20,000 nucleotides of DNA from the IMG/VR virus record IMGVR_UViG_3300042389_001675; one strand, 5' to 3'. This document shows, in pieces, positions 1,261 through 20,000 of this stretch. This DNA is from an uncultured virus (IMG/VR IMGVR_UViG_3300042389_001675). Lineage: Duplodnaviria; Heunggongvirae; Uroviricota; Caudoviricetes. How positions within the stretch are numbered: position 1 is the first letter of the stretch; each line of letters starts with the position of its first letter. A program made the position numbers and the translations under genes. The notes beneath the pieces were generated by a model, which did no database searches, was not told the origin of the DNA, and saw only the letters and a list, made by a program, of their open reading frames with translations.

Positions 1261-2208
1261 TCAGACGAAGTCGACGCGAGCCAGACCTGACGTATGGCCG
1301 ATCGTACCACCGAGTGATTCGTAGGCGAAGAACTCGATGAAATAGGCCTCCCGACGAATGTACATAGTTGTATCTTCGAGGAGATAGCTCTTGCCAATGA
1401 ACTTAGGGTCAGCGAAATGATACATCGTGCCGGTAGGCACAAGACCTTTCTTGATCGTAATCACCAGCTTGACGCCCATGAATTCGCTGAGCGTCCAGCC
1501 GTTGCGCATGATTTCTTCGCTCAGGTCGCCACCCATTTCATTGCGTGTGAATTTTGCAACATCCTTGATGGTGATGTTGTTCATCAGCACGCAGTGAACT
1601 TCCAGATTGGAAGGCGTTTCTGGCATGATCTTCATGCTATCAAACAGGGTATCACGGGTGATACCGCCGTTGATGACCTTGTACTGCACGGTGCCTGAGG
1701 TCGGTACCGTTGCGTTGGGGCCAACCAGCGCCGTGTTCACCGCCGAGATAAACTTGCCGTCTTCTTCGGCCAGCATATCCTTGATGGCGTTGTCGCTCAG
1801 CACCTGGCGGATGTCCATGTACCAGGTCCGCAGTTCATCCACATCCTTGGTGAACTTTGGCGTTACGATACGATCAAAGGTCACCTTGTACCGGTCACCC
1901 TTGATGTACAGATTCGTCGGCAGTGTGGCGAAACCAATCGAGACAGCGGCTGGGCTGTTGGGTTCCTTGTCCACAATCTTGACCGGCTTGTCCGTATCCA
2001 CCTGACGATCCAGGTCGTCGTTGGAAATCGGAACAGGCGGCATAATCCGGCGGTAGAAGCCGTCTTCACGCATTTTAATGCGAGTGAAGTCATTGACGGC
2101 GTCAACTGCCTGCTTCTCCAGCGTCCAGTCGCGCGAGGAGAGCTTGTCAAGAATCGTCTGACTCAGGAGCTTGGATTCTTCCTGGGTCATACCGGTTGAA
2201 TAAGCCAT
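1261..2208 (-). CDS. Major capsid protein, probable HK97 fold (315 aa from the ATG at 2208)
   Basis: Strong SD GGAGG at 2218-2222 favours ATG 2208 over the track start at 2247. Size and gene order (protease, scaffold, decoration, this gene) fit. The sequence has an HK97/encapsulin-like pattern: REDGFYRRIM N-arm, beta-rich E-loop, then the spine helix DELR...IRQVLSDNAIKDMLAEEDGKFI and C-terminal strands IEFFAYESLG..I...GLARVDF. Confidence 0.8.
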   Translation of the reverse strand: MAYSTGMTQEESKLLSQTILDKLSSRDWTLEKQAVDAVNDFTRIKMREDGFYRRIMPPVPISNDDLDRQVDTDKPVKIVDKEPNSPAAVSIGFATLPTNLYIKGDRYKVTFDRIVTPKFTKDVDELRTWYMDIRQVLSDNAIKDMLAEEDGKFISAVNTALVGPNATVPTSGTVQYKVINGGITRDTLFDSMKIMPETPSNLEVHCVLMNNITIKDVAKFTRNEMGGDLSEEIMRNGWTLSEFMGVKLVITIKKGLVPTGTMYHFADPKFIGKSYLLEDTTMYIRREAYFIEFFAYESLGGTIGHTSGLARVDFV

Positions 2209-2273
2209 TGTGCAAAACCTCCGTGTAAGCCTACCGGCTAAGCTCACTGCCGAGCCGGTTACAGCCTGGTAAC

Positions 2274-3384: not shown

Positions 3385-4614
3385 TTAACGGCGAGACCGG
3401 GCCAGGACTTCCTGGATGTAGTCTCGGACTTGATTCTTGGCGGCACCCTTCTTAGCCGCAGCGGTCTTGGCGGCCGCAGCGACTTCCATGCCGGGAGCAG
3501 CGGCAGCGGTATCTTCGGCTTCAGCTCCGCCTTCGCCTTCTGCCGCCATGGCGGCTTCCAGCTCTTCCGGGGTGATGCCGTTTGCCTGCATAATGGCAAT
3601 CAGCTGTTCCAGCTCATCGCCGCCCCCGCCAGCTTCAGGCGCTCCGCCCATCATGGCGTCTGCCATTTCAGCGGGAGGGCCACCAGCCATGGCAGGATCC
3701 ATCGGCATTTCGCCTTCGGCCTGCTTGGCCAGTTCAGCACTGTAATTTGCCAGGAAAGTCGCCACCTTGTCAGCGTCGTCCGAAGCTGTCTTGATGATTT
3801 CTTCCAGCGTGTGCTGTACCAGGCTATCAGCTGCGCGCTTGTCGAAATTACCGCTAAGCAATCCGGCCAGCTCCCAACCGGCCTGTCCGGCCAGATCAAC
3901 AGCTTCCTTCTCGTCCTCATCGTCAGTTTCGGCAGGCTTACCGCCGTTACGCAGGGCCTTGAAGTCTGAACCTTCCAGCTTACCGTTGTTATTTACGTCC
4001 AGCTTGTGCTGGCCGCCAACAAGTTCAGCTGCTTTCTGCATGTTGGCCAGTTCGACCAACAGCTGATTACCCAGGTCAGACGCAACCTTGGCCAGCGCGT
4101 CCAGCGACATTTCGGCATACTTGTAACCGTCGAGCTGACTGTTGTTAGTCCGCGCGGGGTGTGCCGTATTGCCGAGGCGGCCGCCTGTGCTGTCTTCCTT
4201 TTCAGCTTTCACTGAAGAGGTTTCATTTGAAGGATCTTCACCGGTCGGTTCCTTCTTGGTGCCAATCTGCAGTTGATCGGCTGAAGCAGTACCTGCCGGA
4301 TTAATTCCACCCATTTCCGACTTGCCGTCTACAGCCAGCTTGCGCCGCGCTGCAGCTTTCTTGTCCGCTACACCCTGCGCCGTGTTGTTGACTGAAGCCG
4401 GTCCCTGATCAGCTTTCACGTCCGCGTCATTTTCGCGGGCGCGAGCACCTTCGGTAGCTTCTTCAGTCGAGTCATCCACGTCTTTCACAGGATGAGTCGT
4501 CGGGCCACCTACGCTACCAGGCTCGGTGTGGGCCTCAGCAGCGCGCTTTTCGGTGGCGGCGATATCCTGCAGAAAACGATCGATAGACATCGACCCAATC
4601 GCAGAAGTATTCAT
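3385..4614 (-). CDS. Probable scaffolding/prohead core protein (409 aa)
   Basis: SD AAGGAG; acidic, Ala/Glu/Gly-rich, low complexity and Cys-free, with a basic amphipathic C-terminal helix (VRDYIQEVLARSRR); located between protease and MCP; many K-x-A motifs. Confidence 0.65.
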   Translation of the reverse strand: MNTSAIGSMSIDRFLQDIAATEKRAAEAHTEPGSVGGPTTHPVKDVDDSTEEATEGARARENDADVKADQGPASVNNTAQGVADKKAAARRKLAVDGKSEMGGINPAGTASADQLQIGTKKEPTGEDPSNETSSVKAEKEDSTGGRLGNTAHPARTNNSQLDGYKYAEMSLDALAKVASDLGNQLLVELANMQKAAELVGGQHKLDVNNNGKLEGSDFKALRNGGKPAETDDEDEKEAVDLAGQAGWELAGLLSGNFDKRAADSLVQHTLEEIIKTASDDADKVATFLANYSAELAKQAEGEMPMDPAMAGGPPAEMADAMMGGAPEAGGGGDELEQLIAIMQANGITPEELEAAMAAEGEGGAEAEDTAAAAPGMEVAAAAKTAAAKKGAAKNQVRDYIQEVLARSRR

Positions 4615-4648: not shown

Positions 4649-7273
4649 TCATCCGTTAAAAACCAGATTTTGGCCCAGACTCAACCTGACAGTTGTTGGA
4701 AAGTCGGTGTCCACAGCAGCAACCCGCCAGAGACTTGCCAGCTTGTAGATGGCGTAGTCCTTGGCCAGTTGTTCTCCACCCTGGTCCCACGAGGCCGACT
4801 TTTCATACACAGAAATCGCAGGAGCGCTGTGCCCCCGGATACAACTCAACAATACCCGATCTGTTACCGCAGCTTTGCTCAGCGAATAATCCGCATGCAA
4901 AGCAGCAGCCAGCATTCGAGCACTTTCAGTGGCTGTTTTGTCGATGAAATCACACTTTCCGGATTCGACCCGCAAAGGTAGTGATTCGTCCATCGTCATC
5001 CGTGTGTAAATTCCAGGTAAAACAGCAGCCGCACTTTTTAGGTGCATTTCCTGTCCAGCCAGCCTGGCATAATCACGAAGATTCAAAATGATTTTCCGAT
5101 CAGCTAAAGCAGCCAACTGGGTATCACACTGTACGGAGCCAAACGCCGCCAGCTTTTCCACAGGGAAGGCCGGTGTGACAAAAGCTCGATAGCTATTAGC
5201 ATCTATTGCGGCGGCTGATTTTTCAAGAGAAGCCAACCCATAACCCAGTTTAATTTGCGCGGTATGCGCTTCAGACCAACAACCGTGACTACCGTTTTGA
5301 TACAGAATTACAGCCAAGGGTGCTGTTGAACTTTCTGCCATTTTAATTGAGTTTTGCAACTCAAAGAATCCGGCGTCACTTGCCGCTTTTGTGAGGTAAT
5401 CGGCTTTTGCCCCGTAGGCAATCCGATCGGCTGGGCGAAAAACCCGACTAATATCAAACCAGGTTGGATTGGGATTGTCTACATGCAAGTGATGTAAATC
5501 GTTGCCAACTTTAACCAGGCGGGTCAGATTATCGCGGCAACCCCCAGCGGCGCACTTTTCACGGGTACAGTATTCGTCCCGCGTTTTGGCTGCGTGTTTG
5601 CAGAAAGAACAAATATCGTGCGGCACTCGGCAATTATGGCTGATTAAGCCACCCAAGCTATAAGACTCATCGTCCTCTACCTCAAAATTGTAAGTCTCTG
5701 CGTCAGTAACTTCACGTACTTGAATTTCTGCAATTCGGTAAGCGTATCGCCCGTCCGGACAAAACCGCATTGCAGCTGGTTTTGTCCGCTGTGTATGCGA
5801 TGTCACATAGTTTGCGGCTTTTTCGGAATCACCGGCTAACCGCCACAAGTCCAGGTGTGCGATATTCAGTGTATATTCGATACCACTGTTCTCATAACCG
5901 CTTGTGGCGCACTTAGTGTGGTCGATGCGATAGATCGAGGTTGGAATCCCCAAAGTAGCCAGCAAATCCCGGCCTTGCAGTAATAGTGCGCGATTTGCAG
6001 AAGACCAGTGTCCGCCCTTTTTATCAATCCAGCCATCACCATCCAGCCAAGCACCCAGAAAAGCCAGTTTGACTTCCGGTGTGGCGTTAAACAATTCCGG
6101 TGGAATTGCTTTATGCTTGCAGCCGCGACCCACATATTTGCGCAAAAATTCAGCAAACGCTGTGCTTTGCACCAGCACGCTTAAACCTTTATCGGTATTT
6201 CGCCGCGGTTTAATTTGTACAGTGATGTCCGGATAAAGGGCTTCCACCAGTTGCGGTAACCGTCGCGGCAGCGAATCAGTCAAGTTGCAATTAAAATCAA
6301 CAGTGCAGGCGGTATCTTCGTTATAGTTGAAGCTACCCTCCGCAATGTAGTACCCCATGATTGCGGCCAGAATTTTGCAGTCAATTGCGCCATACCCGCT
6401 GAATCGACCAACAGGCTGGTAAAAGAAGCGATCACCCGGTTGCAGATGTTCTGCATGTGTCCAATCCGCCGGGGCTGCCTCAAACGTAGCGTTATCTCGA
6501 AAATAACGAGACGCTTTAACTTTGACACTGCTGGCTGCACAGGCAAAGGTTTTAGCCAGCATTGGATGATCTTCAGTTAATTCAAGTGGTAACGGTAAGC
6601 CATTACACCGGAATGTATAGGCCTTACCTGTGAACTTACGCCGATTTAGCTGCGTTACCGGCTTCCAGCGGCCCTTGTGTGTCCAGACATACATGCCAAC
6701 TTTAACTTCAGCAATAGGGACATAGCCATGATCGCGCGTCAATACCGGATAAGTTGGATCTAACACACAAGCCATGCTCACGGGCATATCTTCACCGCGA
6801 GCAATCTTCTCCAGCTCCGTCTCTGCCACAAAACCGCCATTACGGTCGGCCGCTTCTTTGGAGGCGTTCAGCGCTACCAGTAATTCCACACGCCGCATGT
6901 CGTCGTTGTAAGCTGAGGCTTTAACCACCCCGTAAAACGGATCGCCGCGTTCCGGTTTGTTCTGATGATTACGGAAAAACTTGGCAAACTTGACGAACGT
7001 GTCATGGTGTTGGCGGCAGGTAGCTTCCTTGAACCCGTCGCCGTTACGATTAGGTCCGTAGGCTTCACTGGCCCCCAGCGCAATCAGGTGCACGGGAACC
7101 TCGTCCTTGGCAAATTTCACGCGATCCAGCTGAGGCAGAAAGCTGTGGCTGGCTCGCTTGAGAAATTCACGCCGATCAGCGCCAATCAGGCCACGCTGAC
7201 TCAGCTTGACGGGCTCCAGGGTGCGTTGTTCAAAATCCCATCCCGAGGGCGAGACAAACTTGACAAGTGCCAT
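4649..7273 (-). CDS. Prohead maturation serine protease with an intein (874-aa precursor, ~495 aa after splicing)
   Basis: Phage protease-type motifs PNRNGDGF, FFRNHQNK (candidate catalytic His) and PVSMA/CRVPHDICSFC (candidate catalytic Ser followed by a CxxC cluster); located upstream of scaffold and MCP. Confidence 0.75.
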   Translation of the reverse strand: MALVKFVSPSGWDFEQRTLEPVKLSQRGLIGADRREFLKRASHSFLPQLDRVKFAKDEVPVHLIALGASEAYGPNRNGDGFKEATCRQHHDTFVKFAKFFRNHQNKPERGDPFYGVVKASAYNDDMRRVELLVALNASKEAADRNGGFVAETELEKIARGEDMPVSMACVLDPTYPVLTRDHGYVPIAEVKVGMYVWTHKGRWKPVTQLNRRKFTGKAYTFRCNGLPLPLELTEDHPMLAKTFACAASSVKVKASRYFRDNATFEAAPADWTHAEHLQPGDRFFYQPVGRFSGYGAIDCKILAAIMGYYIAEGSFNYNEDTACTVDFNCNLTDSLPRRLPQLVEALYPDITVQIKPRRNTDKGLSVLVQSTAFAEFLRKYVGRGCKHKAIPPELFNATPEVKLAFLGAWLDGDGWIDKKGGHWSSANRALLLQGRDLLATLGIPTSIYRIDHTKCATSGYENSGIEYTLNIAHLDLWRLAGDSEKAANYVTSHTQRTKPAAMRFCPDGRYAYRIAEIQVREVTDAETYNFEVEDDESYSLGGLISHNCRVPHDICSFCKHAAKTRDEYCTREKCAAGGCRDNLTRLVKVGNDLHHLHVDNPNPTWFDISRVFRPADRIAYGAKADYLTKAASDAGFFELQNSIKMAESSTAPLAVILYQNGSHGCWSEAHTAQIKLGYGLASLEKSAAAIDANSYRAFVTPAFPVEKLAAFGSVQCDTQLAALADRKIILNLRDYARLAGQEMHLKSAAAVLPGIYTRMTMDESLPLRVESGKCDFIDKTATESARMLAAALHADYSLSKAAVTDRVLLSCIRGHSAPAISVYEKSASWDQGGEQLAKDYAIYKLASLWRVAAVDTDFPTTVRLSLGQNLVFNG
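5633..6769 (-). mobile_element. Intein with LAGLIDADG homing endonuclease (379 aa, precursor residues 169-547)
   Basis: Block A CVLDPTYPVLT; block B LELTEDHPML; LAGLIDADG motifs IMGYYIAEGS and FLGAWLDGDG; blocks F/G TYNFEVEDDESYSLGGLISHN followed by a +1 Cys. Confidence 0.95.
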
Positions 7274-7274
7274 A

Positions 7275-8450
7275 TCAATAGCCTCCGGGCGCTTGCATGC
7301 CCTGTACCAGATTCTGTAACGTCTGGCGACTTGTACCCTGATCTTGTTTAGCTTGCGCGTAGCCTGTTATCGGGCTCTGCCCGGCGGCATCAAACAACGC
7401 ATTAGCTGCTGCGGCAAGCAAACCTAAACGACCACCGCGTGCGGCTAAACTTGGTTTTTTAACTATTTTCTGTAAGCTGCCTTCTCCAAGAATGTGTTCG
7501 ACATTATCTTTCACAGCCTTGGGCACAGCCCCAGTCAGCATAGTGCCGCTCGGTAGTCTATCTTTAACGTATTGCACCCTTGTTGCATAGTTTGGAATTG
7601 CTGTCGCAATATTTTCTGATTGAGTCTGCATGCGTAAATTAGGCGGAGTTAACATACTCTCAATAGCGGCACGCTCTGACGGTGTAAGCTGAGCCTTCGG
7701 AGCAATTTTAATTGCCAGTTCGCGCGCCAGTCTGTCTTTATCAAACGTTTCCGGCAGTTTTGGTGCAAGCTTATGTAATACTCCGGTTGTCGCCGCAATA
7801 CCGCCTGTCTGTAACGCCGCCGTAGATTCAGGAGCGTAAGGTTTTGCGTTTTCTTGCAGTTCTTTAATCAATTGGGCTTTTGTTGAATCAGGCTGCGCAT
7901 TAAAGATTTCTGGCTGACTTTTGTCATGATAGTTTGAAAGTTGCTCTGCAGTTTGCACTGCAGCTGAAGGGTTTGAGGGTTTGGTTGGTTCAACAACGCC
8001 TCTTTGTTTATCTATCAACTTAGTAATTAGCTGCGGGTTTAAAGCAAGACCTAAGCCTCCGCCCATGGCGGTACCTGCAATACCGCCGCGCAGCATATTA
8101 CGCCGCAGACTACCTTCACCAGACACCAGCGATTTACCAAGTCCAGCGGCCGTACCTAGACCGCCGCCAACAAGCGAAGATCGCACAACATTCTTGGAAG
8201 CGTCATCCAGGCCACTCCAGGTACCAGTTGCACGTTGCCCCAGGTTTTTAATTCCGGATTTTAAACTTTCCCAATCAACGGCTGCGGCTTTTTCTGTAAA
8301 CCGCACGCCGATATCACGCAACACAAAAGTATTAGCCAACGCTTCCGGCGTCATTGGTCGGATTTTACCGGCATCTACCGCTTGCTTACGCAGTTGCAGT
8401 AACTGTAAACCTTGAGCGTACGTAATATCAGCCAATGATACTGGTTTCAT
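7275..8450 (-). CDS. Hypothetical glycine-zipper protein (391 aa), candidate internal virion/ejection protein
   Basis: Two GxxxG-rich hydrophobic segments (SLVGGGLGTAAGLG; GGIAGTAMGGGLGLAL); no Cys; N-terminal RKQA and EKAA; stop lies 1 nt from the protease ATG; overlaps the upstream gene by 23 nt. Confidence 0.7.
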   Translation of the reverse strand: MKPVSLADITYAQGLQLLQLRKQAVDAGKIRPMTPEALANTFVLRDIGVRFTEKAAAVDWESLKSGIKNLGQRATGTWSGLDDASKNVVRSSLVGGGLGTAAGLGKSLVSGEGSLRRNMLRGGIAGTAMGGGLGLALNPQLITKLIDKQRGVVEPTKPSNPSAAVQTAEQLSNYHDKSQPEIFNAQPDSTKAQLIKELQENAKPYAPESTAALQTGGIAATTGVLHKLAPKLPETFDKDRLARELAIKIAPKAQLTPSERAAIESMLTPPNLRMQTQSENIATAIPNYATRVQYVKDRLPSGTMLTGAVPKAVKDNVEHILGEGSLQKIVKKPSLAARGGRLGLLAAAANALFDAAGQSPITGYAQAKQDQGTSRQTLQNLVQGMQAPGGY

Positions 8451-9759: not shown

Positions 9760-10776
9760 TCAACTCCTTTGAATGAACACATTCTGCACGGCCGCCTGTT
9801 CCAGATCCAGAATCCGGATATTGGCTCCGGCATTAAGCAGTTCGGTTGCATCCGGTTCAACCGCTGTTTGATCGTATTCGCCGATCAGCTTGTTGTCGTA
9901 CAGCTGAGCTCCGCTTCGTCCCACACTCCAGGGGAATTCCTGCATCAGCTGGTTGATTGTCTTCTCCAGCTCGTTATGGCGATCTTCGGTATTGGCCGCG
10001 GAACGTTGAATTTCCATCAAGCGGGTGTGGACCGCAAAGAGTTCCATGACGTTGAATTTGTTGATTTCAAATTGCATTGCAGCCTGTAAGCTGCGTCGCT
10101 TGATTTGAGTTGCAAATTGTTCATCAAGGTAAGTGGCCAGTTCGTCGAGTTTTTTGACGTGATTTCGCTGGAATCCACTGATCATAATATCACAAACCAG
10201 CGGACCACCAAAATAGGCGAAAAACTTTAACGACATGTCCAGTTGAGGTAACGCCACCGTTGAACTGCGGGCACGCGCCAACGCCTGCGCCGCAGAGTCA
10301 GAACTGGCATCGGCATCCACATGGCGGTCAAAGGCCGGGATCAGCACGGAGTGCAAGATCCAGTCGTCAAATTCCAGGCGATTGCCTACGTTAAAAAACA
10401 GACACTCGTACCAGATTACCGTATCCGGCAACAGCTTGAGCTTCTGGGCAATCTCTTCGTAACTCATGCCGCTGAGTAAACGGGCTTCCAGGATGTTCGC
10501 CACGTTGGGTTCAACGGCTTTTCGCTCGTAAATTTTGTTGGCGTAAAACAAACCTGGTTGTTTTAGCATCAGGTTACGGCGGGCTTCGGCATCAGTATTT
10601 CGCGCCGCAATCCGAAATTTACGAAACTCCTGAATGTACTTGTCGTCGAATCGATCGGTTCGCCGTGGTGGCGTAAACCGCAGTAAATCCGCAACACGTT
10701 CCGCGCGCCAGTTCGGACTTAAAAAAGGATCGTGTTCGATAATTGTACGCAGATTCGCCACAAAAACCTCACTCAA
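9760..10776 (-). CDS. Hypothetical protein (338 aa) with possible helix-turn-helix
   Basis: TTG start overlaps the upstream TGA (TTGA); segment ILEARLLSGMSYEEIAQKLKLLPDTVIWYE resembles a sigma region-4/LuxR-type HTH. Confidence 0.7.
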   Translation of the reverse strand: MSEVFVANLRTIIEHDPFLSPNWRAERVADLLRFTPPRRTDRFDDKYIQEFRKFRIAARNTDAEARRNLMLKQPGLFYANKIYERKAVEPNVANILEARLLSGMSYEEIAQKLKLLPDTVIWYECLFFNVGNRLEFDDWILHSVLIPAFDRHVDADASSDSAAQALARARSSTVALPQLDMSLKFFAYFGGPLVCDIMISGFQRNHVKKLDELATYLDEQFATQIKRRSLQAAMQFEINKFNVMELFAVHTRLMEIQRSAANTEDRHNELEKTINQLMQEFPWSVGRSGAQLYDNKLIGEYDQTAVEPDATELLNAGANIRILDLEQAAVQNVFIQRS

Positions 10777-11435: not shown

Positions 11436-13928
11436 TTAGTTCCTCGCAGTTTCTTCCAGAGAAATGTCGCCCTGATCGAACGGAGATTCGATCGTTTTTT
11501 CTTTCAAGAAGAGCGTCACGTCGCCGAGTGATTCAAACGCATTGCGTAAGCTGTCTTCCAGCTCGGGCATATCGGCCTTGCCGTAACGATCTTCAAACTC
11601 TTCACCGTGCCAGTAGAAATTCATCAGCAACCGGCCCAGTGAATCCAGTGCATCCATCAAATCGGACAGATGCCGCTCAACAATCGAATCCTGCCGCACG
11701 GATTTGATCATGCCTGCAATCATGGCCGTGTCAAAAACTTCCTTTTGACCGTTTTGCGCAGCTTGCCCAGCCGTCTGGACGGATTTTTGAAAATCAGCGG
11801 CTTCAAAGTTCATCCATGGATCCCAGATTGTCGGGTCCGTCTGTTCGGCCGACAACTCCGGTAAGCGATAAGCCGCAGCTCCGGCGTACTGCGTCGGTAC
11901 CGCCGTGCGCGGGCCGTACTGCTCTACGCTGCGCTCATCGGCAAAATCCTCGTAGATTGGTGCCGAAGGTCCGCCTGCCAGAATACTGCGATTAGGCTCT
12001 GCCTGTTTTTCCGTACCGTAGCCTGGTGCATACTGGATCCGGTATTGGGCTTTACCTTGCTGTGCCGCGTTATCCAACACCAGCCGTGCCACTTTCTCAG
12101 TCAACCCGTGCTGACTGACCAGCTCCCAGATCGCAGCCGTCTTGCTCAGGGATTTTGCCCCAAAGACCGAATCGATATAAACATCCGTGTGATTGTGATA
12201 CACCGTCAACCCGGCGGTCTTTTCGTAAATCATCAGCTGGACATCGTCGATCTTGCCCAGCCGAATGGGTGCCGGTTCGCTGCGGGCGCTGCAGCAGTCC
12301 AGCAGAAAACCACCCGACGGTTTCAGCGGATCGCTTAACTTCAGGAATTTGGTATCGGGCGGCAGCCGAAGTTCTCCGGCAATTGCCCGCATCTTCGAAC
12401 CCTTCGCGGTCAGCATCAGGATTGCGTTGTAGTTGCTGGGTGTGTAATAACCGTCATCCGACATCGGATCTGAGATCTTCTTCACGTGCGGAATTGTCGC
12501 AGGTCGGCGTTCGTCGAAATTGATGTTTACCCGGAAATCCACCAGGTACTGTCCATTACCACGGTCTTCGCGCACATGGAACGGTGTTGTGGTGGCTTTG
12601 CTGGCATCAATGGCAATGTATTCGCCACCTTCCTGCAGACTTTGGCTATCACCCAGACCTTCAAACCAGCTATCCCACTCATCCTGTTCGGAAATCTGAT
12701 CCGCGAAGACGTTGGTGGTGTACGTATTCATCCAGGCTTTACCGTCGCCGCTGTTATTCTCCAGCCGCACCACGGTGACCATCGGCTCCTGGCCCCGATT
12801 ACTGATCGGGTGGACGGCCAGTAGCATCTTGTTAAACGCACCGGGCTTTTCCAGTACACGGTAGAGTGCAGTTTCGGTGGGATTCGTCAGTGACGCAGAA
12901 ATTTGGGTGTTATACACCCGGCTGACCTGTTCACCTTTGCGGTGATCCTTAATCAGTACCGTGTCATTCAGCAGTCTGGCCCGCTCGGCGTCATCCAATT
13001 CCGGCATGCGCTTATCGATCACGTATTCCGCCACGTACATACGCAGCTTGCCTTCTTTCACGTGATCGATCGGCGCAGGCGGTGGTGTGTCAGGAATCAG
13101 GCGATTTCCCGGCAGGTTGCTTGCGGTTTTGGCGATTGTTACCGGCAGGATACTGGCTTCCTGCGCATCCACTGCCGCTTTCAGCTGCTGGCCCCAGCGC
13201 GAAAGACAATCTGCACCGTAAAATCGGGTCAGCCCCCGGCGCACTGCCGGAAAAGTCTCGGCAAAGGCATAAGCAGCCTTGAGCAGCGGCAAGCTTGTAG
13301 GCAGGATCCGGTTAAAATCCAGTTTTTGCGCCTGCTTCGCCAGTGCCGCGGTAAGCGGCTGTTCCACCACGGCGGCCTGGTTGAGCTTACGTGTACCTGC
13401 GCCTTTATACAACGACCCGGCTGTTTTGAGTTTGCAGGCAGCCAACAGTGGTAATATGTCCTTAAACCAGCGGGCATCGCTGGCACGTTTACCACCACCA
13501 ATCGATGGTGGGATGGAAAAGGTACGGATATCCGGGTAAATTCCGCCCAATTCCCTGAGTTTGGACACGCCCGCTTGCTCGCCCAGGATGTGCGGCTTGC
13601 GGCTCATGATGTAATTGATCCAGTTTTCCTTGAGCGGCACAAACGAATCGTTATTTTTGAGATAGAGCAGTTCGTGCCCTTTTAAATCACCGTTTAGGAA
13701 GAAAACCGGGGCGTAGAGCCACTGGGATCCGATCTGGAACCCAAATACGGCCACGGCTTTGGTGTTGTCTTCATTGCGTTCAACCAGCTGAAACCCAACC
13801 ATATGATCCAGGAGTCGCGGAGCCTTGTCGCGCAGGTAAGCATAAGCCAGGCTGGAAAAGGCCTGTTCAAACTCGGTCTCACCGCCCGTTCCGCCGAGGT
13901 TGGCCCGCTTCATCAATTCCGTTTGCAT
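11436..13928 (-). CDS. Large hypothetical protein (830 aa), K-x-A punctuated, probably virion/head-associated
   Basis: Long ORF with ATG and upstream AAGGAAG; globular-looking blocks separated by MKRA, GKRA, LKTA, AKQA, AKTA, EKTA, SKTA, EKQA; acidic helical C-terminus. No family recognised. Confidence 0.82.
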   Translation of the reverse strand: MQTELMKRANLGGTGGETEFEQAFSSLAYAYLRDKAPRLLDHMVGFQLVERNEDNTKAVAVFGFQIGSQWLYAPVFFLNGDLKGHELLYLKNNDSFVPLKENWINYIMSRKPHILGEQAGVSKLRELGGIYPDIRTFSIPPSIGGGKRASDARWFKDILPLLAACKLKTAGSLYKGAGTRKLNQAAVVEQPLTAALAKQAQKLDFNRILPTSLPLLKAAYAFAETFPAVRRGLTRFYGADCLSRWGQQLKAAVDAQEASILPVTIAKTASNLPGNRLIPDTPPPAPIDHVKEGKLRMYVAEYVIDKRMPELDDAERARLLNDTVLIKDHRKGEQVSRVYNTQISASLTNPTETALYRVLEKPGAFNKMLLAVHPISNRGQEPMVTVVRLENNSGDGKAWMNTYTTNVFADQISEQDEWDSWFEGLGDSQSLQEGGEYIAIDASKATTTPFHVREDRGNGQYLVDFRVNINFDERRPATIPHVKKISDPMSDDGYYTPSNYNAILMLTAKGSKMRAIAGELRLPPDTKFLKLSDPLKPSGGFLLDCCSARSEPAPIRLGKIDDVQLMIYEKTAGLTVYHNHTDVYIDSVFGAKSLSKTAAIWELVSQHGLTEKVARLVLDNAAQQGKAQYRIQYAPGYGTEKQAEPNRSILAGGPSAPIYEDFADERSVEQYGPRTAVPTQYAGAAAYRLPELSAEQTDPTIWDPWMNFEAADFQKSVQTAGQAAQNGQKEVFDTAMIAGMIKSVRQDSIVERHLSDLMDALDSLGRLLMNFYWHGEEFEDRYGKADMPELEDSLRNAFESLGDVTLFLKEKTIESPFDQGDISLEETARN

Positions 13929-13962
13929 TAGTTCTTCCTTGAGCGCAAAAGCTCAAACGGTA

Positions 13963-14220
13963 TCAGGAATGAATAATCTGATCATACGGGTTCCAGCCAC
14001 CGCCCAGGTCACGTGCGGCCAGTCGCTGGTTAAACTCGGCCAGCTTTTCCTGCATACTGGCATAGGCCAAGGCGTCTGCCTGCTTATCCAGCTCGGTTTC
14101 TGCAGGTGGTGCCGGTTTCTTTTTCTTTTTGGGCTTTACTGTGGGTGGGAGCAGATAAGCTTCTGCCAGTTTTGCATTAAAACCACCCAGAGTCGGCTTG
14201 AGTTGGAACATCCTATTCAC
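13963..14220 (-). CDS. Small hypothetical protein (85 aa; may start at ATG 14211)
   Basis: Fills the gap co-directionally; basic run KPKKKKKP; contains DKQA and EKLA. Confidence 0.6.
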   Translation of the reverse strand: MNRMFQLKPTLGGFNAKLAEAYLLPPTVKPKKKKKPAPPAETELDKQADALAYASMQEKLAEFNQRLAARDLGGGWNPYDQIIHS

Positions 14221-14252
14221 CTGTGGTTATCAAGGAACCGGGACTTTTAATC

Positions 14253-14282
14253 AGTTTAGCAAGCAAACGCAGGCTATCGCAA
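14253..14282 (-). promoter_or_regulatory. Candidate sigma70-type promoter
   Basis: Minus strand: -35 TTGCGA (14282-14277), 18-nt spacer ending in TGC (extended -10 TGn), -10 TAAACT (14258-14253); located in the intergenic gap after the beta' C gene. Confidence 0.4.
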
Positions 14283-14292
14283 GGCATAGGTA

Positions 14293-17200
14293 TTAGCGGA
14301 ACAGGTAGGGCAAATAGCGTAAATTGGAAAATTCGTAAATTCCGGATTTAAGCGGATTGTTAAATCCCTTCCACATTTGGCTGAGCGTACCACGATTTGC
14401 CAGATCATTTTCATACTGTTGCCAATCCCAACCACGCTGCCCGTCGAGCCCAGCCAAGTCACCCAGCTCAAAAGCTGTATTCAACAGCGTTGTTGCCCCA
14501 ACTGCCGGTAATCCACCACGCAGCCCTGCGGCGCTGGTGGCGGCACGGCCAGGTAAAGCCAAATCTAAAGCAAAGTTTGTCGGCCCGGCTAATCTCGGAA
14601 CTGTACCTGTTAATTTCGGTAAAAGGCGACTTAGCCAACCAGGATTAGCTTGTGCTTGTGATTGTGCCAGCGGTAACAGTTTTTTACCCAGATAAGCCAT
14701 ACCGCGTCGTTCCGCTTCAGACAAGCCTAGCGTCTCTAATCCGGTCATACCGGCCTGATTAAAAGCCTGCATTGGAGTCGGCATGGTCAAACTGTTTGTA
14801 GTGGTTTGTGGCAACTGACTAACAAGCTTGAGCGGCACCGGCAGGATATCTACTTGGGCTAAATTTTTCTGCAGGTTTACGGGCAGGATCGACTGTGCGA
14901 ATTCTGTGCTTGAAATTGACGGATTAACAAGATCTGTCTGCGTAGTTTCAGAAACAGTTGGTTCTGGTTGCCAACTGGACGGACTGGGTAGATCGGTAAG
15001 TACCGGTAAAGGTTTTGCCGATTCTGCAAAACTGGGCGGCGGTACAGCCATACCGCCCCGCGACTGGACAGGCAGGTTGGTAGGTGCAGGCAAGTTAGCA
15101 GGTAGGTTGGTAGGTGCAGGCAAGTTAGCAGGCAGGTTGGTAGGTGCAGGCAAGTTAGCAGGCAGATTGGTAGGTGCAGGCAAGTTAGCAGGTGGGTTGG
15201 CAGGCGGGTTGGCAGGTGCAGGCAAGTTAGCAGGCGGATTGGCAGGTGCAGGTTTTGCCGCAGCAAGCGGTGTGGTTAGATAACCAGTCAAACCACCCAA
15301 TCCGGCGCCTGCCGCCAAACTCAAGTTACGTTGACGTTTACGCGCTTCTTCTGTCTGGGCTGGGTTTAGTGCCTGATACGCACGATGTCCCAGATAGCCT
15401 GCCCCTGCGCCCAGGCCTGCCCCCAGCAAACTGCGAGTCAGTGTGTCTGCTGCCATGTTTGCCTGTTTCAAAACAGGATCCGTTTCAGGGAGTGCAACTG
15501 ATGGCAGTTTATACGCAGGTTTGGGCTGCACCACAGCACGATCCGGCACTTCACCGAAATCAGTACCGGTGGCCAGGCTGGGTACAAAACTGGTACCGCG
15601 TTCTTCGCTGACACCGCCGCGTGCCACTGACTCCAGCAGACTTTTCTTCAAACCGGAACCGTACATTTGCGTCATCCAATCCGGGTCATGCTGTAGTTGA
15701 TACATCCCGCGCACCATATGTGGCTGAAACGGTGGTGGATTTTTATGCACTGGCACCGTCGTGACACCGAACTCATCAAAGTCTTTCAGCATGGACGGCC
15801 GAATCTTTGTACCGATGGTGTAATGCAGTACCGGAGCTTCCAGATACTGCCCAACCGCCTGTTTTGGTAACAGGCGTTCATGCCCCGAACGCGGCTGATA
15901 CGTATGTTCCAGTGTGGAGTAAGGGACAATATCATCCGGAACGTGATCGCCGATTTCTTCGGTGAGCTGTACGTGATTAATTAAACCGCGCGCCAGTAAC
16001 TCGATGTTGCGCCGATGCCCCTGCATCCCGGAAGCGGCCATGGCCTTGCGGAACTCATTGACAAAATACCGCCGACCTTCACCCACACCTTTGTACTGCG
16101 TAATTAACGCCGGGTTAGGAATACCATCACTGAGCATGTCTCCGGCTTCGACCTGATCACCTTTTTTAATCTTGAGTTCAAAGCCTTCGCCCACGTAATG
16201 CTTCTGGTCGTTAATCATGACGTAGTGGCCACCGGCAGCCGCCGGTTCAACCCGCTGAACTACTCCGTCGACCGTAGCATGGGCAGCACCGCCCTGCATC
16301 TTCTTGGGTACCTGAATCAACTGGTTGATGTACTGAAAACCGCCGACCGCTTTTTCCTGGCCTGCCACACCGCCTGAGTGCTTGGCCGAGAGCTGCCCCT
16401 GACTGATTGGTTCGGACAACGCCTGAGCTGCCTGCAGGCCAACCTGTTCACCGCGGCCGGGCAACGTACCGTTTTCCCGAATTCCGACATCACGGGCATA
16501 GACTCCGCCTTCCGGCGAGCCGCCTACCAGCGGACTACGGATTAAAATCCGGTTTTTACCGAGCCGTTCCAGATGCTTGAGAATTTTTGGTGTCAGCGGT
16601 GTGTTGCGTTTGTATGGCCCGGTATCACGAGCCAAAAGCGCACCTTCATTATCCAGATCGGAGGTATCCGCAATCAGTCCACGCACAGGTGCATCCGGAC
16701 GTTCGTCGCCTTCTTCGCCCATCACGACCAGGCGATGTCCGGCCTGATTAAGCTGCTTGGAGAGAAATCCGGCTTCCTGTGTGGCAAACTTGGTGGCAAT
16801 GATGCCGCGTCGCGCACCGTAAGTTCCTGCCCAGTATTCTTCCGGCGTCAAACCCTCGCTGTAACTGCGCAGCACCGGAATTGGAATCACTTCATCCCGG
16901 TGATCCGTATAAAGCATGTCTGAACCCAGCAGACTGGCCAGATTCATCGGTTTACCGCGGCTACCGGACAAAACCTGCAAACCCAGTGGATTGCCGCTGT
17001 CTACGGCTTCCTGCAGCACGGCTTTAATTTGAGGCGAAGACTCGTTGTTAACCGTGCGGATAATTCGCTCATTACGCTGTTGCTCGGTGAGCGTATCATC
17101 CGCCAGGATGGGGGCCAGCTGCTGCGTGATCCGTTGCCGGATCTCGTTGGCTGCCTTGCTTCGACGCAAATGCCGCAAACCGAACGACAACCCGCCCTGG

Positions 17201-17388
17201 TCCTGTGCCGAGCGCCACCCGACCTGATTCAGCTGAAACGACACATCCCGGTATTTATCCGGATGTTGTCGTGCCACTTGCTGGAGCAGTGCCGATAGAC
17301 TTTTCTTGTCCAGTACACGATGATAATCGCGTAAATCCTCCGGCAAGGCGTCGTTTACCAGCAACTGCCCAACAGTGGTATTCAGCAT
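14293..17388 (-). CDS. rpoC: Phage multisubunit RNA polymerase beta' subunit, C-terminal half (~640 aa), fused to a ~390-aa non-RNAP tail
   Basis: beta' motifs in the correct order: TTVG, SGSRG, bridge helix SYSEGLTPEEYWAGTYGARRG...TQEAGFLSKQL, IRSP, trigger loop GEQVGLQAAQALSEPISQGQLSAKHSGG, VEAGDMLSDG, HRRNIELLARGL, DWMTQM..SGLKKSLLESVARG. SD GAGGA upstream. Confidence 0.92.
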   Translation of the reverse strand: MLNTTVGQLLVNDALPEDLRDYHRVLDKKSLSALLQQVARQHPDKYRDVSFQLNQVGWRSAQDQGGLSFGLRHLRRSKAANEIRQRITQQLAPILADDTLTEQQRNERIIRTVNNESSPQIKAVLQEAVDSGNPLGLQVLSGSRGKPMNLASLLGSDMLYTDHRDEVIPIPVLRSYSEGLTPEEYWAGTYGARRGIIATKFATQEAGFLSKQLNQAGHRLVVMGEEGDERPDAPVRGLIADTSDLDNEGALLARDTGPYKRNTPLTPKILKHLERLGKNRILIRSPLVGGSPEGGVYARDVGIRENGTLPGRGEQVGLQAAQALSEPISQGQLSAKHSGGVAGQEKAVGGFQYINQLIQVPKKMQGGAAHATVDGVVQRVEPAAAGGHYVMINDQKHYVGEGFELKIKKGDQVEAGDMLSDGIPNPALITQYKGVGEGRRYFVNEFRKAMAASGMQGHRRNIELLARGLINHVQLTEEIGDHVPDDIVPYSTLEHTYQPRSGHERLLPKQAVGQYLEAPVLHYTIGTKIRPSMLKDFDEFGVTTVPVHKNPPPFQPHMVRGMYQLQHDPDWMTQMYGSGLKKSLLESVARGGVSEERGTSFVPSLATGTDFGEVPDRAVVQPKPAYKLPSVALPETDPVLKQANMAADTLTRSLLGAGLGAGAGYLGHRAYQALNPAQTEEARKRQRNLSLAAGAGLGGLTGYLTTPLAAAKPAPANPPANLPAPANPPANPPANLPAPTNLPANLPAPTNLPANLPAPTNLPANLPAPTNLPVQSRGGMAVPPPSFAESAKPLPVLTDLPSPSSWQPEPTVSETTQTDLVNPSISSTEFAQSILPVNLQKNLAQVDILPVPLKLVSQLPQTTTNSLTMPTPMQAFNQAGMTGLETLGLSEAERRGMAYLGKKLLPLAQSQAQANPGWLSRLLPKLTGTVPRLAGPTNFALDLALPGRAATSAAGLRGGLPAVGATTLLNTAFELGDLAGLDGQRGWDWQQYENDLANRGTLSQMWKGFNNPLKSGIYEFSNLRYLPYLFR
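15071..15252. repeat. Coding tandem repeat, 30-bp unit (PANLPAPTNL on the minus strand)
   Basis: Four near-identical copies of GGYAGRTTGGTAGGTGCAGGCAAGTTAGCA at 15071-15190, followed by degenerate PANP/PANLPA subunits to ~15252. Confidence 0.95.
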
Positions 17389-17402
17389 CCCTGCGTCCTC
17401 AA

Positions 17403-18023
17403 TCAGTCGCCCTGGTCTACACCAAAAGCCTCAGCGACATCAGTCTCGGTGATTTCCTCTGCGGCTTTTCGGCGTCTGCCTTTTTTGGCTACCCGTTGTA
17501 CGGGTTCTTCAACTACCGGCTCTTCCGCTGCGGGCAAGTCTTCAATTACCGGAGCTTCTTCCTCGGCCGGAGCTTCTTCGACGACAGCGGTTACCGGCTC
17601 AGGCGCGGTGGCAGGCGCGGCCACCACAACGTCAGACACCGTAACTACGTACTGAATGCGATCGGCTTGTGCCCGTGTCAGGCGGTTTTGTCCGACCGCA
17701 AGGTCAATACCGGTTTTAGCTTTGCTGATCTGGATGGCGTCGCCAGTGACTTGAACAGCAGTGGCTCCGTCACCGAAGGCAGCAGTGACCGCAACCAGGA
17801 TCGGCGTATCGTCGCAAACCAACTCTACGCGCTTATCCAGCGTTGTCGCGACGGGTGCAACCGTGCGGGAAGCGTAATACTTGTCTGACGAAAAATGTCC
17901 GTCCCCCGGCCGCACAAAATAGGAAGCATGCGGGCGAGCATTACTACGCCCTTCGGCGGTTTCAATTGGTTTTACCTGTTGTTTGGCGCGGTAGTACGCG
18001 TCATCTGCGCTGCGATGAGCCAT
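17403..18023 (-). CDS. Hypothetical protein (206 aa) with acidic Glu/Pro/Ala-rich disordered C-terminus
   Basis: ATG 1 nt after the upstream TGA; lies between the two beta' genes. Confidence 0.75.
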   Translation of the reverse strand: MAHRSADDAYYRAKQQVKPIETAEGRSNARPHASYFVRPGDGHFSSDKYYASRTVAPVATTLDKRVELVCDDTPILVAVTAAFGDGATAVQVTGDAIQISKAKTGIDLAVGQNRLTRAQADRIQYVVTVSDVVVAAPATAPEPVTAVVEEAPAEEEAPVIEDLPAAEEPVVEEPVQRVAKKGRRRKAAEEITETDVAEAFGVDQGD

Positions 18024-18024
18024 C

Positions 18025-18252
18025 TCAAATTCTCACAATATCGGTAACGGTAGTCTCGTTAATTCCCAACTTTTTCAGATTTTCATTAAAGTTGGCATCC
18101 GCACAGTGTGAGACCAAGACACTGGCAGCTGTTCCAAACACGGCCGCCACGCTCACTGGCGTGCCGTCCGGTAAACGGATTACCACTTGACTGGCGGGGA
18201 TTCGCACAGGTGGTTTGCCGATACGGTCAAGTACTTCAACAATAAACGACAT
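18025..18252 (-). CDS. Small hypothetical protein (75 aa)
   Basis: ATG with SD-like TAAGGT overlapping the upstream stop; tightly packed on both sides. Confidence 0.72.
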   Translation of the reverse strand: MSFIVEVLDRIGKPPVRIPASQVVIRLPDGTPVSVAAVFGTAASVLVSHCADANFNENLKKLGINETTVTDIVRI

Positions 18253-18262
18253 TGCGTTTACC

Positions 18263-18877
18263 TTAATTTCTAGCCCGAGAGCGCAGCAGCAAAGCCGCAG
18301 CCTGACTGGCCGTACTCTGGGTATTGCGTTTAGCGGTTTCCAGGTCCGCGGGTGGAGTAAACGCTACCCCATATTCCCATTCGGCCGCTTTCATCGGCTC
18401 AATAGGCTGGATCTGGCCCAGGCCGCCACCGCCATTATCCGGTGTAGAGGCGGCATAACCGGCACCGCCCTGAGCAATCTGATTCAAATCTTCCGGTGTC
18501 GCCACCATATCCTGCGCTGGAATGTGGATTCCCAAGGCATCCACAATTTTTGCCAGCATTTTCTTAATCTGCATAATTTCGACATTCACGTCAATCTTGG
18601 GCTTGAGCCCTGGTCCAGCACCCTGCATGCCGCCACCTTGTGAGGCCATTGCCTGCTGCACTGCCATTTGAATCATCGGCATCATGGCGGTCATTGGGTC
18701 GCCGCCACCTGCCATCGCTGGATCCATTGGCGGTGCTCCACCCCCCGCCATCGCCGGATCCATTGGTGGCGTGCCGCCACCTGCCATCGCCGGATCGGTT
18801 GCGGCAACAAACGCCTGCTTTTGCAGGGTTGCGATATTCTGTTTAGCCTGCTGCAGCAGGTGAAGGTTAACGCCCAT
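18263..18877 (-). CDS. Hypothetical Met/Gly/Pro-rich protein (204 aa) with MDPAMAGGG repeats
   Basis: ATG with SD AGGAG; QKQA is followed by three DPAMAGGG repeats and then a helical segment; no Cys. Confidence 0.8.
   Translation of the reverse strand: MGVNLHLLQQAKQNIATLQKQAFVAATDPAMAGGGTPPMDPAMAGGGAPPMDPAMAGGGDPMTAMMPMIQMAVQQAMASQGGGMQGAGPGLKPKIDVNVEIMQIKKMLAKIVDALGIHIPAQDMVATPEDLNQIAQGGAGYAASTPDNGGGGLGQIQPIEPMKAAEWEYGVAFTPPADLETAKRNTQSTASQAAALLLRSRARN
18701..18796. repeat. Coding tandem repeat, 36-bp period (PPMDPAMAGGGx), ~3 copies
   Basis: GCCATCGCYGGATC at 18711, 18747 and 18783. Confidence 0.9.
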
Positions 18878-18886
18878 GAAAGACTC

Positions 18887-19999
18887 CTATGCGTCAAGGA
18901 TCTGGACCGAATCGTCAATTGAAAGTGTGCCGCGTGCGTATGCCCGCTTGGCATCCTGGATGGTACGAAAAATCTTTGGTGGTCGCTCGTTGCGCGCACG
19001 CGTGGCATGAAACAGGCCACCAATATATTCATTCGCCGGAGCATGCATCACGGATTTGAAATCACTCAGGCTAAAGAGATTCCGGCTTGGCAGCAGCCGC
19101 TCGTAGGCTTCTTGTACGGCCTTGTCGGTGCTGGGCACGTGGTAGTTCATAGCGTCACCGTCAAAGTCGGCGTTAAACCCTTTGACGATTAGCGGGCTTA
19201 CCTGCAGTGTATCACCTTTGGTAATTCGCGGCTTCATTGCCATGATTCCAAACTTGTGCAACACCGGCGCCCGGCTGATATACACAGGACGCTGATCCAT
19301 TTCTTCCATTAAAATCCGCCGCGCCAGTTGCGTCTTATCGGCAATCTGTTCCCGGGCTGCCCGCATGGACATACCCTGCCGTACCAGACGACGGGTCACA
19401 AACTTTTCGTAGGCTTTAAAGGCTTTCTCTTCCGGTAATCCCACCGAATCCATATCCAGATCCGGGTTGGGCGAAATCACGGCACGCCCGACATTGTCCA
19501 CCGTCGTGGAAATCAGTTTACGCTGGAGCGTACCAAATTTAGGACTGCTCCCGAACACCGATTTGAGCGCACCCTGTACATTTTTGTCCCGGCTTTTCTG
19601 ACTGATCGGATCACCCAGTCCCGTCACTGCCTTAAATGCGTTGTACGTCGCCAGGCGTTCGGCGTGGGCGGATTCCGCACCCAGCGCCTGCTGGATATCC
19701 TTGAGATTTTTGTTGGCTTCAAAAAGTTCTTTGTACAGGTAATTGGCGTCGTTAATCAGCGGCATATCGTTCGACATGAGACTGACAGGACGAAACTGAG
19801 GCGGCAATACCGGCACTTTGGTCAGGACATAGTCTTCGGGTTTTAGCCCCAGCTTTTTGATGCTCTTCAGGTAACCCAGCTTACGCACCGCACTGTCGCG
19901 CTCCGAGGCCCGCCCGGCGGCAATAATCGTACGAGCCTGTGCAATTTCCTTATCCACATTCATTCCGGCCAACGCCTTTTGAATGGCTTGCGGGCCGGA
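18887..19999 (-). CDS. rpoC: Phage multisubunit RNA polymerase beta' subunit, catalytic (N-terminal) half; 5' end lies outside the window
   Basis: Catalytic NADFDGD at 19154-19174; also VPVLPPQFRPV, DANYLY, KFGTLQRKLISTTVDNVGRAVI and SRAPVLHKFGIMA. The frame stays open upstream of the track's TTG (SGPQAIQKALAGMNV, matching beta' GAEAIQALL), so the true start is beyond 20000. Confidence 0.95.
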   Translation of the reverse strand, partial: SGPQAIQKALAGMNVDKEIAQARTIIAAGRASERDSAVRKLGYLKSIKKLGLKPEDYVLTKVPVLPPQFRPVSLMSNDMPLINDANYLYKELFEANKNLKDIQQALGAESAHAERLATYNAFKAVTGLGDPISQKSRDKNVQGALKSVFGSSPKFGTLQRKLISTTVDNVGRAVISPNPDLDMDSVGLPEEKAFKAYEKFVTRRLVRQGMSMRAAREQIADKTQLARRILMEEMDQRPVYISRAPVLHKFGIMAMKPRITKGDTLQVSPLIVKGFNADFDGDAMNYHVPSTDKAVQEAYERLLPSRNLFSLSDFKSVMHAPANEYIGGLFHATRARNERPPKIFRTIQDAKRAYARGTLSIDDSVQILDA

Positions 20000-20000
20000 A

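Follow-up and report, generated by a model that had tools for sequence, protein, structure and literature searches.

A cysteine-free, cellular-type multisubunit RNA polymerase encoded beside the head genes of an uncultured tailed phage is a candidate for virion packaging and ejection

Introduction

Why would a phage encode a cellular-type multisubunit RNA polymerase (RNAP) that lacks cysteine, and why would its genes lie among those for the capsid? This question is raised by a 20,000-nucleotide stretch of DNA (the window) from an uncultured member of the Caudoviricetes (IMG/VR record IMGVR_UViG_3300042389_001675), which encodes two pieces of an RNAP β′ subunit next to a head operon. An original prediction, made from the letters of the window and their translations, proposed that this enzyme may be packaged in the virion and ejected into the host. 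Having compared the two chains with their homologues, with other phage polymerases, and with the remaining genes of a complete relative, we consider it reasonably probable that the polymerase is packaged into the virion and ejected into the host; the proposal was open to refutation by ordinary cysteine content in homologues, and it withstood that test.

Results and Discussion

Every long open reading frame (ORF) of the window lies on the minus strand. Positions 14293-19999 (minus strand) hold four of them, namely the catalytic chain, ORFs of 204 and 206 amino acids (aa), and a chain that we call β′C, which are listed here with the parts of β′C.

18887..>19999, minus strand: C-terminal part of the catalytic chain, 370 aa, frame open past the window end; N-terminal half of β′ with the Mg site; no cysteine
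18263..18877, minus strand: 204-aa ORF, Met/Gly/Pro-rich, with DPAMAGGG repeats; no cysteine
17403..18023, minus strand: 206-aa ORF, C-terminal half acidic and Pro-rich; one cysteine
14293..17388, minus strand: β′C chain, 1031 aa; no cysteine
15514..17388, minus strand: conserved core of β′C (residues 1-625), which contains the bridge helix, the trigger loop, and Rpb1 domain 5; no cysteine
14293..15513, minus strand: C-terminal extension of β′C, residues 626-1031 plus stop, 406 aa, Pro/Ala/Leu-rich, low-complexity, and hypervariable; no cysteine
15069..15204, no strand assigned: tandem repeat, 30 bp in 4.5 copies, encoding PANLPAPTNL repeats within the β′C extension

The 370-aa piece matched Pfam RNA_pol_Rpb1_2 (6.7e-27) and contains the catalytic motif NADFDGD (GFNADFDGDAMNYHVP), the metal site of the double-psi β-barrel. 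Residues 179-477 of β′C matched RNA_pol_Rpb1_5 (7.8e-19), and alignment to Escherichia coli residues 765-945 revealed the bridge helix, a trigger loop with its conserved His, and Rpb1 domain 5 in a core that was strongly conserved across 7 sequences. On the NCBIfam model rpoC_TIGR (TIGR02386), the 370-aa piece fell at positions 163-533 (2.1e-58, 198 bits) and β′C at positions 548-1048 (3.5e-55, 187.4 bits), both below the cutoff. Since these scores lie far under the equivalog cutoff of 963.5 bits, the enzyme is best described as a divergent RpoC homologue and not as an rpoC orthologue; since the two model stretches adjoin, the pieces are evidently the two halves of one β′ cut in the middle. 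The cut (window positions 18887 and 17388) falls in roughly the same region as the cyanobacterial rpoC1/rpoC2 split, with matches to positions 183-551 of 619 in rpoC1_cyan and 4-420 in rpoC2_cyan. The catalytic elements are intact: the GDKxxGRxGxKGV segment of β is conserved, as are NADFDGD, the bridge helix, and the His of the trigger loop, so that the polymerase is probably active.

A scan of viral contigs yielded six relatives (72-84% identity over the 370 aa, contigs of 157-205 kb), one of which, G002, is a complete genome with terminal repeats (204,794 bp). The catalytic chain of all six joins β to the N-terminal part of β′ (β-β′N, 1479-1494 aa), Pfam Rpb2_6 and Rpb1_2 occurring in one chain; residues ~120-1007 align to E. 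coli β and residues ~1090-1476 to β′ 160-550. The 370 aa had initially been read as part of a separate β′ gene, a reading that we revise: going by the relatives, they are the C-terminal quarter of this fusion, whose gene runs past the window end. A join of ~80 residues takes the place of the first 160 residues of β′, so that the N-terminal zinc finger is deleted. PF00623 was found at one locus in each of the three near-complete relatives, and the window carries most of the sole recognizable RNAP of this uncultured tailed phage.

There is no cysteine in either the 370-aa piece or the 1031-aa β′C, and the coordinates, reading frames, and zero counts first given for the two polymerase pieces were reproduced. 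Comparison with E. coli K-12 RpoC, whose C198, C366, C454, and C517 are all substituted in the catalytic half, bore out the changes already pointed out: C366 is lost where QCGLP becomes SVGLP, C454 where PLVC becomes PLIV, and at the C-terminal zinc ligands C814, C888, C895, and C898 the window chain has G, G, Y, and D. The N-terminal site (C70/72/85/88) is deleted in the fusion chains of the relatives. As judged from these alignments, both β′ zinc sites are lost and every cysteine is removed.

Could this be chance, or a compositional bias of a cysteine-poor region? The neighboring proteins do contain cysteine, as had been claimed (4 in an 830-aa ORF, 2 in a 441-aa ORF, and 4 in a 219-aa ORF), yet 8 of the 17 window ORFs are cysteine-free, and the C-terminal 406 aa of β′C are of low complexity, both of which favor such a bias. 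With so many short cysteine-free ORFs, a zero is informative for long chains only. The window holds 39 cysteines in 6343 aa, all outside the polymerase pieces, where the frequency is 0.79% (39 in 4942 aa) or, without an intein-bearing ORF, 0.47% (19 in 4068 aa); the probability of none in 1401 aa is ~1.5e-5 at the former frequency and ~1.4e-3 at the latter. By itself the window count is suggestive, and it is the homologues that make the cysteine depletion decisive.

In all six relatives, neither the fusion nor β′C (654-1310 aa) contains a cysteine. Homologues of the fusion were then taken from the best 120 database clusters (55-99% identity), comprising 103 of normal length and 17 bearing inteins. 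Among the former, 93 lack cysteine altogether, while a single cysteine occurs in 7, two in 2, and three in 1, which comes to 14 cysteines in ~152,000 aa. For β′C, 107 of 120 clusters are cysteine-free, 6 of the 13 others carry intein families, and the count spans ~37,000 aa of fast-evolving C-terminal extensions that are almost devoid of cysteine. Counting cysteines in the β part and in homologues had been set beforehand as a check on the proposal, and the outcome upholds it.

The inteins provide an internal control. The 17 intein-bearing fusion clusters contain 23 intein-like insertions; 14 of the 17 have no cysteine outside them, and the residue that directly follows is Ser or Thr for 18 of the insertions, uncertain owing to alignment offset for 5, and Cys for none. 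An exhaustive search at E ≤ 1e-3 returned 7352 cluster representatives; 1576 of them reached E ≤ 1e-30, and these may include bacterial β′; the best 150 all have E < 1e-95 at 43-69% identity, consistent with the suggested metagenomic lineage. In 145 further representatives to which a crude mask was applied, cysteine makes up 0.14% of residues outside large insertions, an upper estimate because the mask is imperfect, against 2.07% inside them, and in no case does Cys follow one of the 179 insertions. Of these 145 representatives, 99 contain one large insertion or more, one recurrent site lying inside the NADFDGD motif; the intein richness of this polymerase family is extraordinary, although clustering may favor long representatives.

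The cysteine-free state thus holds across hundreds of clusters and down to 43-55% identity, and no homologue with ordinary cysteine content was found within the fused lineage. This is family-wide suppression of the kind described for the ejection operon of Schitoviridae, a trait that is not universal among packaged RNAPs.

The genome of G002 allows the two chains to be ranked against other proteins of the same phage. A rough call gave 244 ORFs with 1.58% cysteine, a frequency probably inflated by spurious ORFs. By cysteine depletion the fusion ranks first of the 244 (p = 6e-11), followed by a tape-measure-like protein of 1174 aa and then by β′C, and these three are the only ones without cysteine among the 25 longest ORFs. 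At the frequency of the structural block, the chance of finding no cysteine in the 2133 aa of the two G002 chains is 1.3e-9. Given this value and the persistence of the trait among distant homologues, we regard chance or compositional bias as very improbable.

The tape-measure-like protein (G002 135236-138760; L020:15236-18760) is Gln/Ala/Gly-rich and matches no Pfam family. Among the tail and baseplate genes lies a 244-aa sigma-like protein, also without cysteine (141787-142521; L021:1787-2521), which matched Pfam Sigma70_r3 (1e-7) and, by tblastn, gp10 of Salmonella phage Arash (1.6e-10). Searches of the relatives for other sigma domains gave nothing convincing for Sigma70_r2 and weak matches only for Sigma70_r4. 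No α-subunit family was detected in the 133 ORFs scanned of the 141 in G002 that are at least 180 aa long. Besides, G002 encodes three pentapeptide-repeat proteins (168017-169467 and 197575-198129; L022, L023; Pfam matches up to 1.3e-60) and a family A DNA polymerase that carries a UDG domain as a fusion.

These data also bear on a second explanation, in which the virion carries the polymerase without delivering it in functional form, the protein being either co-packaged incidentally while bound to DNA late in infection or an internal head protein. Avoidance of cysteine would then reflect a long stay in an oxidizing extracellular particle and not passage through the envelope. The virion proteins of G002 are indeed generally cysteine-poor (0.96% in the 105-153 kb block versus 1.58% genome-wide). 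However, its ordinary virion proteins keep cysteine (2 in the capsid protein, 6 in an 837-aa protein, and 6 and 7 in two tail proteins), so that being a virion protein is insufficient to explain a count of zero; with capsid and tail proteins keeping 2 to 7, it is only in long proteins thought likely to pass down the tail that the count is strictly zero. A complete and catalytically intact enzyme accompanied by a cysteine-free sigma-like factor is also hard to explain as passive cargo. We regard this explanation as quite unlikely.

To place the enzyme among known systems, the 370 aa were compared by BLASTP with phage and bacterial sequences. The scores were 182 bits to Arash and 152 bits to Vibrio phage D69; four bacterial RpoC sequences gave 148-157 bits and other phage β′ sequences 79-114 bits, and nothing was found at E ≤ 10 for gp55 and gp180 of phiKZ. 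The enzyme is thus closer to cellular β′ than to phiKZ-type enzymes, as had been suggested. In a rough neighbor-joining tree (Kimura distances, 369 columns, 200 bootstraps), the window family formed one group with Arash and D69 in 153 replicates; that group stood apart from four bacterial sequences in 189 and from the other phage group in 164. Because only four bacterial references were included, the tree is uninformative on origin. None of the DNA in the phage collection was nearly identical to the window.

The lineage is distantly related to Arash and to the Vibrio phages D69, D148, and D181. Arash (OQ632216.1; gp206, gp216, and sigma gp10) and these Vibrio phages have the two-chain layout of the six relatives, here a fusion of ~1525 aa plus β′C. 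As in the window family, Arash and D69 lack the N-terminal β′ zinc finger, are strongly depleted of cysteine, and carry a separate β′C gene in an RNAP locus among head genes, with downstream structural genes syntenic with those of the window. The differences are also clear. Identity between Arash and the window is ~30%; the C-terminal zinc site is retained in Arash and D69, whereas none of its four ligands survives in the window clade; the Arash portal gene lies directly upstream of the RNAP, whereas the portal homologue of the window clade is ~65 kb away; the Arash helicase gp217 and second sigma factor gp196 have no tblastn match in G002; and Arash β′C is a 606-aa chain without extension, whereas the window β′C bears the hypervariable extension of 406 aa. 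Arash gp216 and D69 0264 (β′C) have only 4 cysteines, exactly the four zinc ligands, and the fusion chains have 1 cysteine in Arash and 2 in D69. Together these counts are read as a gradient within the lineage, in which Arash and D69 would keep zinc-site cysteines only and the window clade none.

Mass spectrometry of purified Arash particles bears on packaging: excerpts of that report (PMC10585845) list gp206 with the most spectra (3516), gp216 with 1210, and the sigma factor gp10 with 100% coverage. Arash gp10, like its counterpart in G002, contains no cysteine. These data, as far as the excerpted report goes, show presence in the particle and not transfer into the cell (PMC10585845), and in this respect they fit passive cargo as well as ejection.

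A third explanation is that the polymerase is not packaged at all but is made after infection, as other phage β/β′ enzymes are, its cysteines and zinc sites having been lost under some other pressure, for example toward zinc or thiol-redox independence, be it in the host or in the environment, or toward escape from a host or rival factor directed at those sites. That both sites are gone would by itself cover 8 of the 15 cysteines of E. coli β′ without any ejection, but this leaves unexplained the purge of nonligand cysteines together with the ~37,000 aa of hypervariable extension that is nearly free of them, as well as the residue after the inteins, which is never Cys. The many nonstructural enzymes in the Arash particle list (excerpts of PMC10585845) favor this explanation. 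Against it, the trait is shared in G002 by the tape-measure-like protein and the sigma-like factor, whereas replication enzymes of the same phage have 1-2% cysteine. Position argues likewise against synthesis as an ordinary postinfection enzyme, since the genes lie in the head block, away from early and replication genes. Phage β′ chains encoded in replication modules have ordinary cysteine contents of 1.4-1.8% in four other lineages (TM30, 16 in 1127 aa; Va2, 17 in 1192 aa; 1.031.O, 23 in 1263 aa; RP13, 9 in 517 and 7 in 486 aa). A further point for an unpackaged enzyme is that the packaged polymerase of phiKZ keeps cysteine, so that packaging does not need the trait. On balance, an unpackaged polymerase seems to us unlikely.

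Packaging followed by ejection, the explanation that we favor, finds its nearest parallels in two groups of phages. The large tail-ejected proteins of N4-like phages (N4 gp50-52 and DEV gp71-73) show near-total cysteine suppression family-wide, as do the chains described here, and in excerpts of two reports this is linked to passage through the periplasm (PMC11445570, PMC3915230). Their virion RNAP is an unrelated single-subunit T7-like enzyme of ~3400-3500 aa, according to a portion of one of these reports (PMC11445570), in contrast to the double-psi-barrel β/β′ enzyme of the window. The tape-measure-like protein and a Baseplate_J match in G002 indicate that the window lineage is long-tailed. 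N4-like phages are short-tailed. Arash is described as a myovirus (excerpts of PMC10585845).

The other parallel is the phiKZ/AR9 type, which has a multisubunit β/β′ enzyme with a split β′, as in the window; an overview, in the part available, describes it as packaged in the head and injected (PMC7824862). The match of the window β′N to this type is limited to the PHROG profile phrog_2987 (1.2e-18). In the same partial source, phiKZ has two polymerase sets and no sigma factor (PMC7824862), whereas the relatives of the window have one set and a sigma-like factor; these differences, with the lack of kinship to gp55 and gp180, set the window enzyme outside the phiKZ type. As for cellular enzymes, the window catalytic half is ~29% identical to the four bacterial RpoC sequences and the enzyme contains all of their core motifs, whereas the bacterial chains compared have two zinc sites and 10-15 cysteines and the window family has none. 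Natural bacterial β-β′ fusions, whose NCBIfam models PRK09603 and PRK14844 were also matched, likewise join β to β′, but in the window family the chain is cut again within β′, at rpoC_TIGR positions 533-548.

Several observations weigh against packaging and ejection. The virion polymerase of phiKZ (gp80, 149, 178, and 180) has 16 cysteines in 2614 aa (0.61%), compared with 33 in 2850 aa (1.16%) for the nonvirion enzyme; the subunits were divided between the two enzymes as in the literature, and the virion set agrees with the phiKZ record, where these four proteins are marked as structural head proteins. A packaged multisubunit polymerase that is only ~2-fold depleted shows that such an enzyme need not be cysteine-free, and the trait is a supporting sign of ejection and no proof of it. 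Counts of zero are also not rare among the small proteins of the window, and in G002 15 of 158 ORFs of at least 150 aa have none. The Arash virion list contains 116 proteins, including ribonucleotide reductases and kinases, and the authors note in the excerpted text that abundant infection-phase enzymes may copurify (PMC10585845); virion mass spectrometry for the lineage comes from Arash only, at 30% identity to the window phage. That the host has a periplasm is an assumption. Moreover, scans for sigma-70-type promoters and terminators over positions 13000-20000 gave counts no higher than those expected from shuffled sequence and brought up nothing resembling a promoter on the coding strand, and k-mer enrichment over 66-76 intergenic regions of G002 recovered T-runs only and no timing motif; with no timing signal found, late expression is inferred solely from gene position. 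The window clade has no cultured member, and in the literature searched we found no experiment on whether early transcription proceeds without host RNAP and newly made protein.

That position is at the start of the capsid-gene block, in the same orientation. The head-module features nearest to the argument are as follows.

13963..14220, minus strand: small conserved ORF, 85 aa, with a Lys-rich center, between β′C and the 830-aa head-module gene
11436..13928, minus strand: 830-aa protein, 4 cysteines, first gene of the downstream head block
1261..2247, minus strand: major capsid protein, HK97 fold, 328 aa (phrog_2522, 4.8e-7), which anchors the head module

The 85-aa ORF is 42% identical to an equally placed 72-aa ORF of G002 and matches no NCBIfam family. 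The 830-aa protein has weak local tblastn similarity (3.4e-7 and 6e-6) to the region of Arash gp218, which is annotated as a structural protein, and to D69 0266. The capsid protein matched NCBIfam capsid_Caudo_2 below the cutoff (5.3e-10) and is 29% identical over 324 aa to a D69 locus (5.7e-34). The 219-aa ORF had been called a protease, a name that we could not recover from sequence searches of Pfam, PHROGs, NCBIfam, or the PDB.

Other ORFs of the head module have features of their own. An 874-aa ORF (4649-7273, minus strand) contains a LAGLIDADG intein (Pfam, 1.8e-10) and accounts for 20 of the 39 cysteines of the window; its flanks match the regions of Arash structural gp222 and D69 0270 over ~470-490 aa each, and it is a head-module protein split by an intein. 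A 338-aa ORF (9760-10776, minus strand) gave weak sigma region-4-like matches at residues 75-120 (Pfam Sigma70_r4_2, 0.006; NCBIfam ECF sigma, 0.0012; both far under the cutoffs) and may be a DNA-binding helix-turn-helix protein. Two ORFs of 391 aa (7275-8450) and 409 aa (3385-4614), both on the minus strand, have no cysteine and no family match, and their positional counterparts in G002 (387 and 424 aa) are likewise cysteine-free; we list both as additional candidates for an internal or ejected role.

The two ORFs between the polymerase genes gave no usable match in Pfam, PHROGs, NCBIfam, or a protein atlas, in which the 204-aa ORF hit only unnamed viral clusters under the 0.9 bar. The 204-aa ORF contains a 36-bp tandem repeat (18700-18796), keeps its place between the polymerase genes throughout the clade, and has a cysteine-free counterpart by position in all six relatives. 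The location of the 206-aa ORF is also kept in the clade, its counterparts having 0-2 cysteines, and the counterpart in L003 showed only a weak compositional match to TonB_N polyproline sequence, below the cutoff.

Unlike the core, the β′C extension cannot be aligned between relatives. The long form of β′C occurs in 75 of 120 homologues and the extension is lacking in 45, including the 654-aa form in L007. Any similarity to the extension was found in just 7 of 121 homologues (best, 32%), and on these grounds we ruled out a conserved domain. Gly-zipper-like segments had suggested a transmembrane anchor, which was rejected as well, the Kyte-Doolittle maximum of 1.0 over 19 aa indicating no clear transmembrane helix. 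It is speculation on our part that this hypervariable disordered tail has a role in packaging or ejection.

If the polymerase is packaged and ejected, the course of events might be as follows. Both chains would be made late with the structural proteins and packed into the capsid. On infection, they would leave through the tail with the DNA, probably unfolded; we propose that during such passage any cysteine could form a disulfide in the oxidizing periplasm or block refolding. Inside the host, the chains would refold without zinc and start early transcription, in which the cysteine-free sigma-like factor encoded among the tail genes of the relatives would probably take part. A more detailed version, which we put forward only tentatively, holds that β-β′N, β′C, and the sigma-like factor, stripped of cysteine and both zinc sites and with no detectable α subunit, are stored in the capsid, threaded unfolded through the long tail, and refold unaided, and that the β′C tail serves as a leader or as an envelope-contact module under host-specific pressure.

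As to the host, a single relative was found among 185,579 species genomes: L047, a 79-kb contig with 71% identity that was binned into the metagenome-assembled genome (MAG) of a Gemmataceae bacterium. The contig probably comes from a phage and was co-binned with that MAG, and this hint as to the host, weak at most, was not used.

Conclusions

In the literature searched, we found no statement that this polymerase family is cysteine-free or zinc-free. Jumbo-phage overviews of 2021 (PMC7824862) and 2026, in the portions available, treat phiKZ-type enzymes only and mention neither this lineage nor cysteine; in the 2026 review, the words "Arash" and "cysteine" are absent.

A catalytically intact family that has neither zinc sites nor cysteine implies that both are unneeded for the β/β′ fold or its chemistry, and the family offers a natural minimal β/β′ enzyme for structural and biochemical study. 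If packaging is true, phages would have arrived independently at host-independent early transcription for a third time, the earlier two being the single-subunit enzyme of N4 and the multisubunit enzyme of phiKZ, and cysteine suppression as a sequence-only marker of ejected cargo would apply to large phages with long tails as well as to short-tailed N4-like ones. As candidates for coejection, the marker picks out several unknown proteins besides the tape-measure-like protein and the sigma-like factor, so that cargo may be predictable from sequence. Should the chains indeed be threaded unfolded, a cellular-type multisubunit polymerase would be able to survive unfolding and export, as a minimal enzyme free of zinc.

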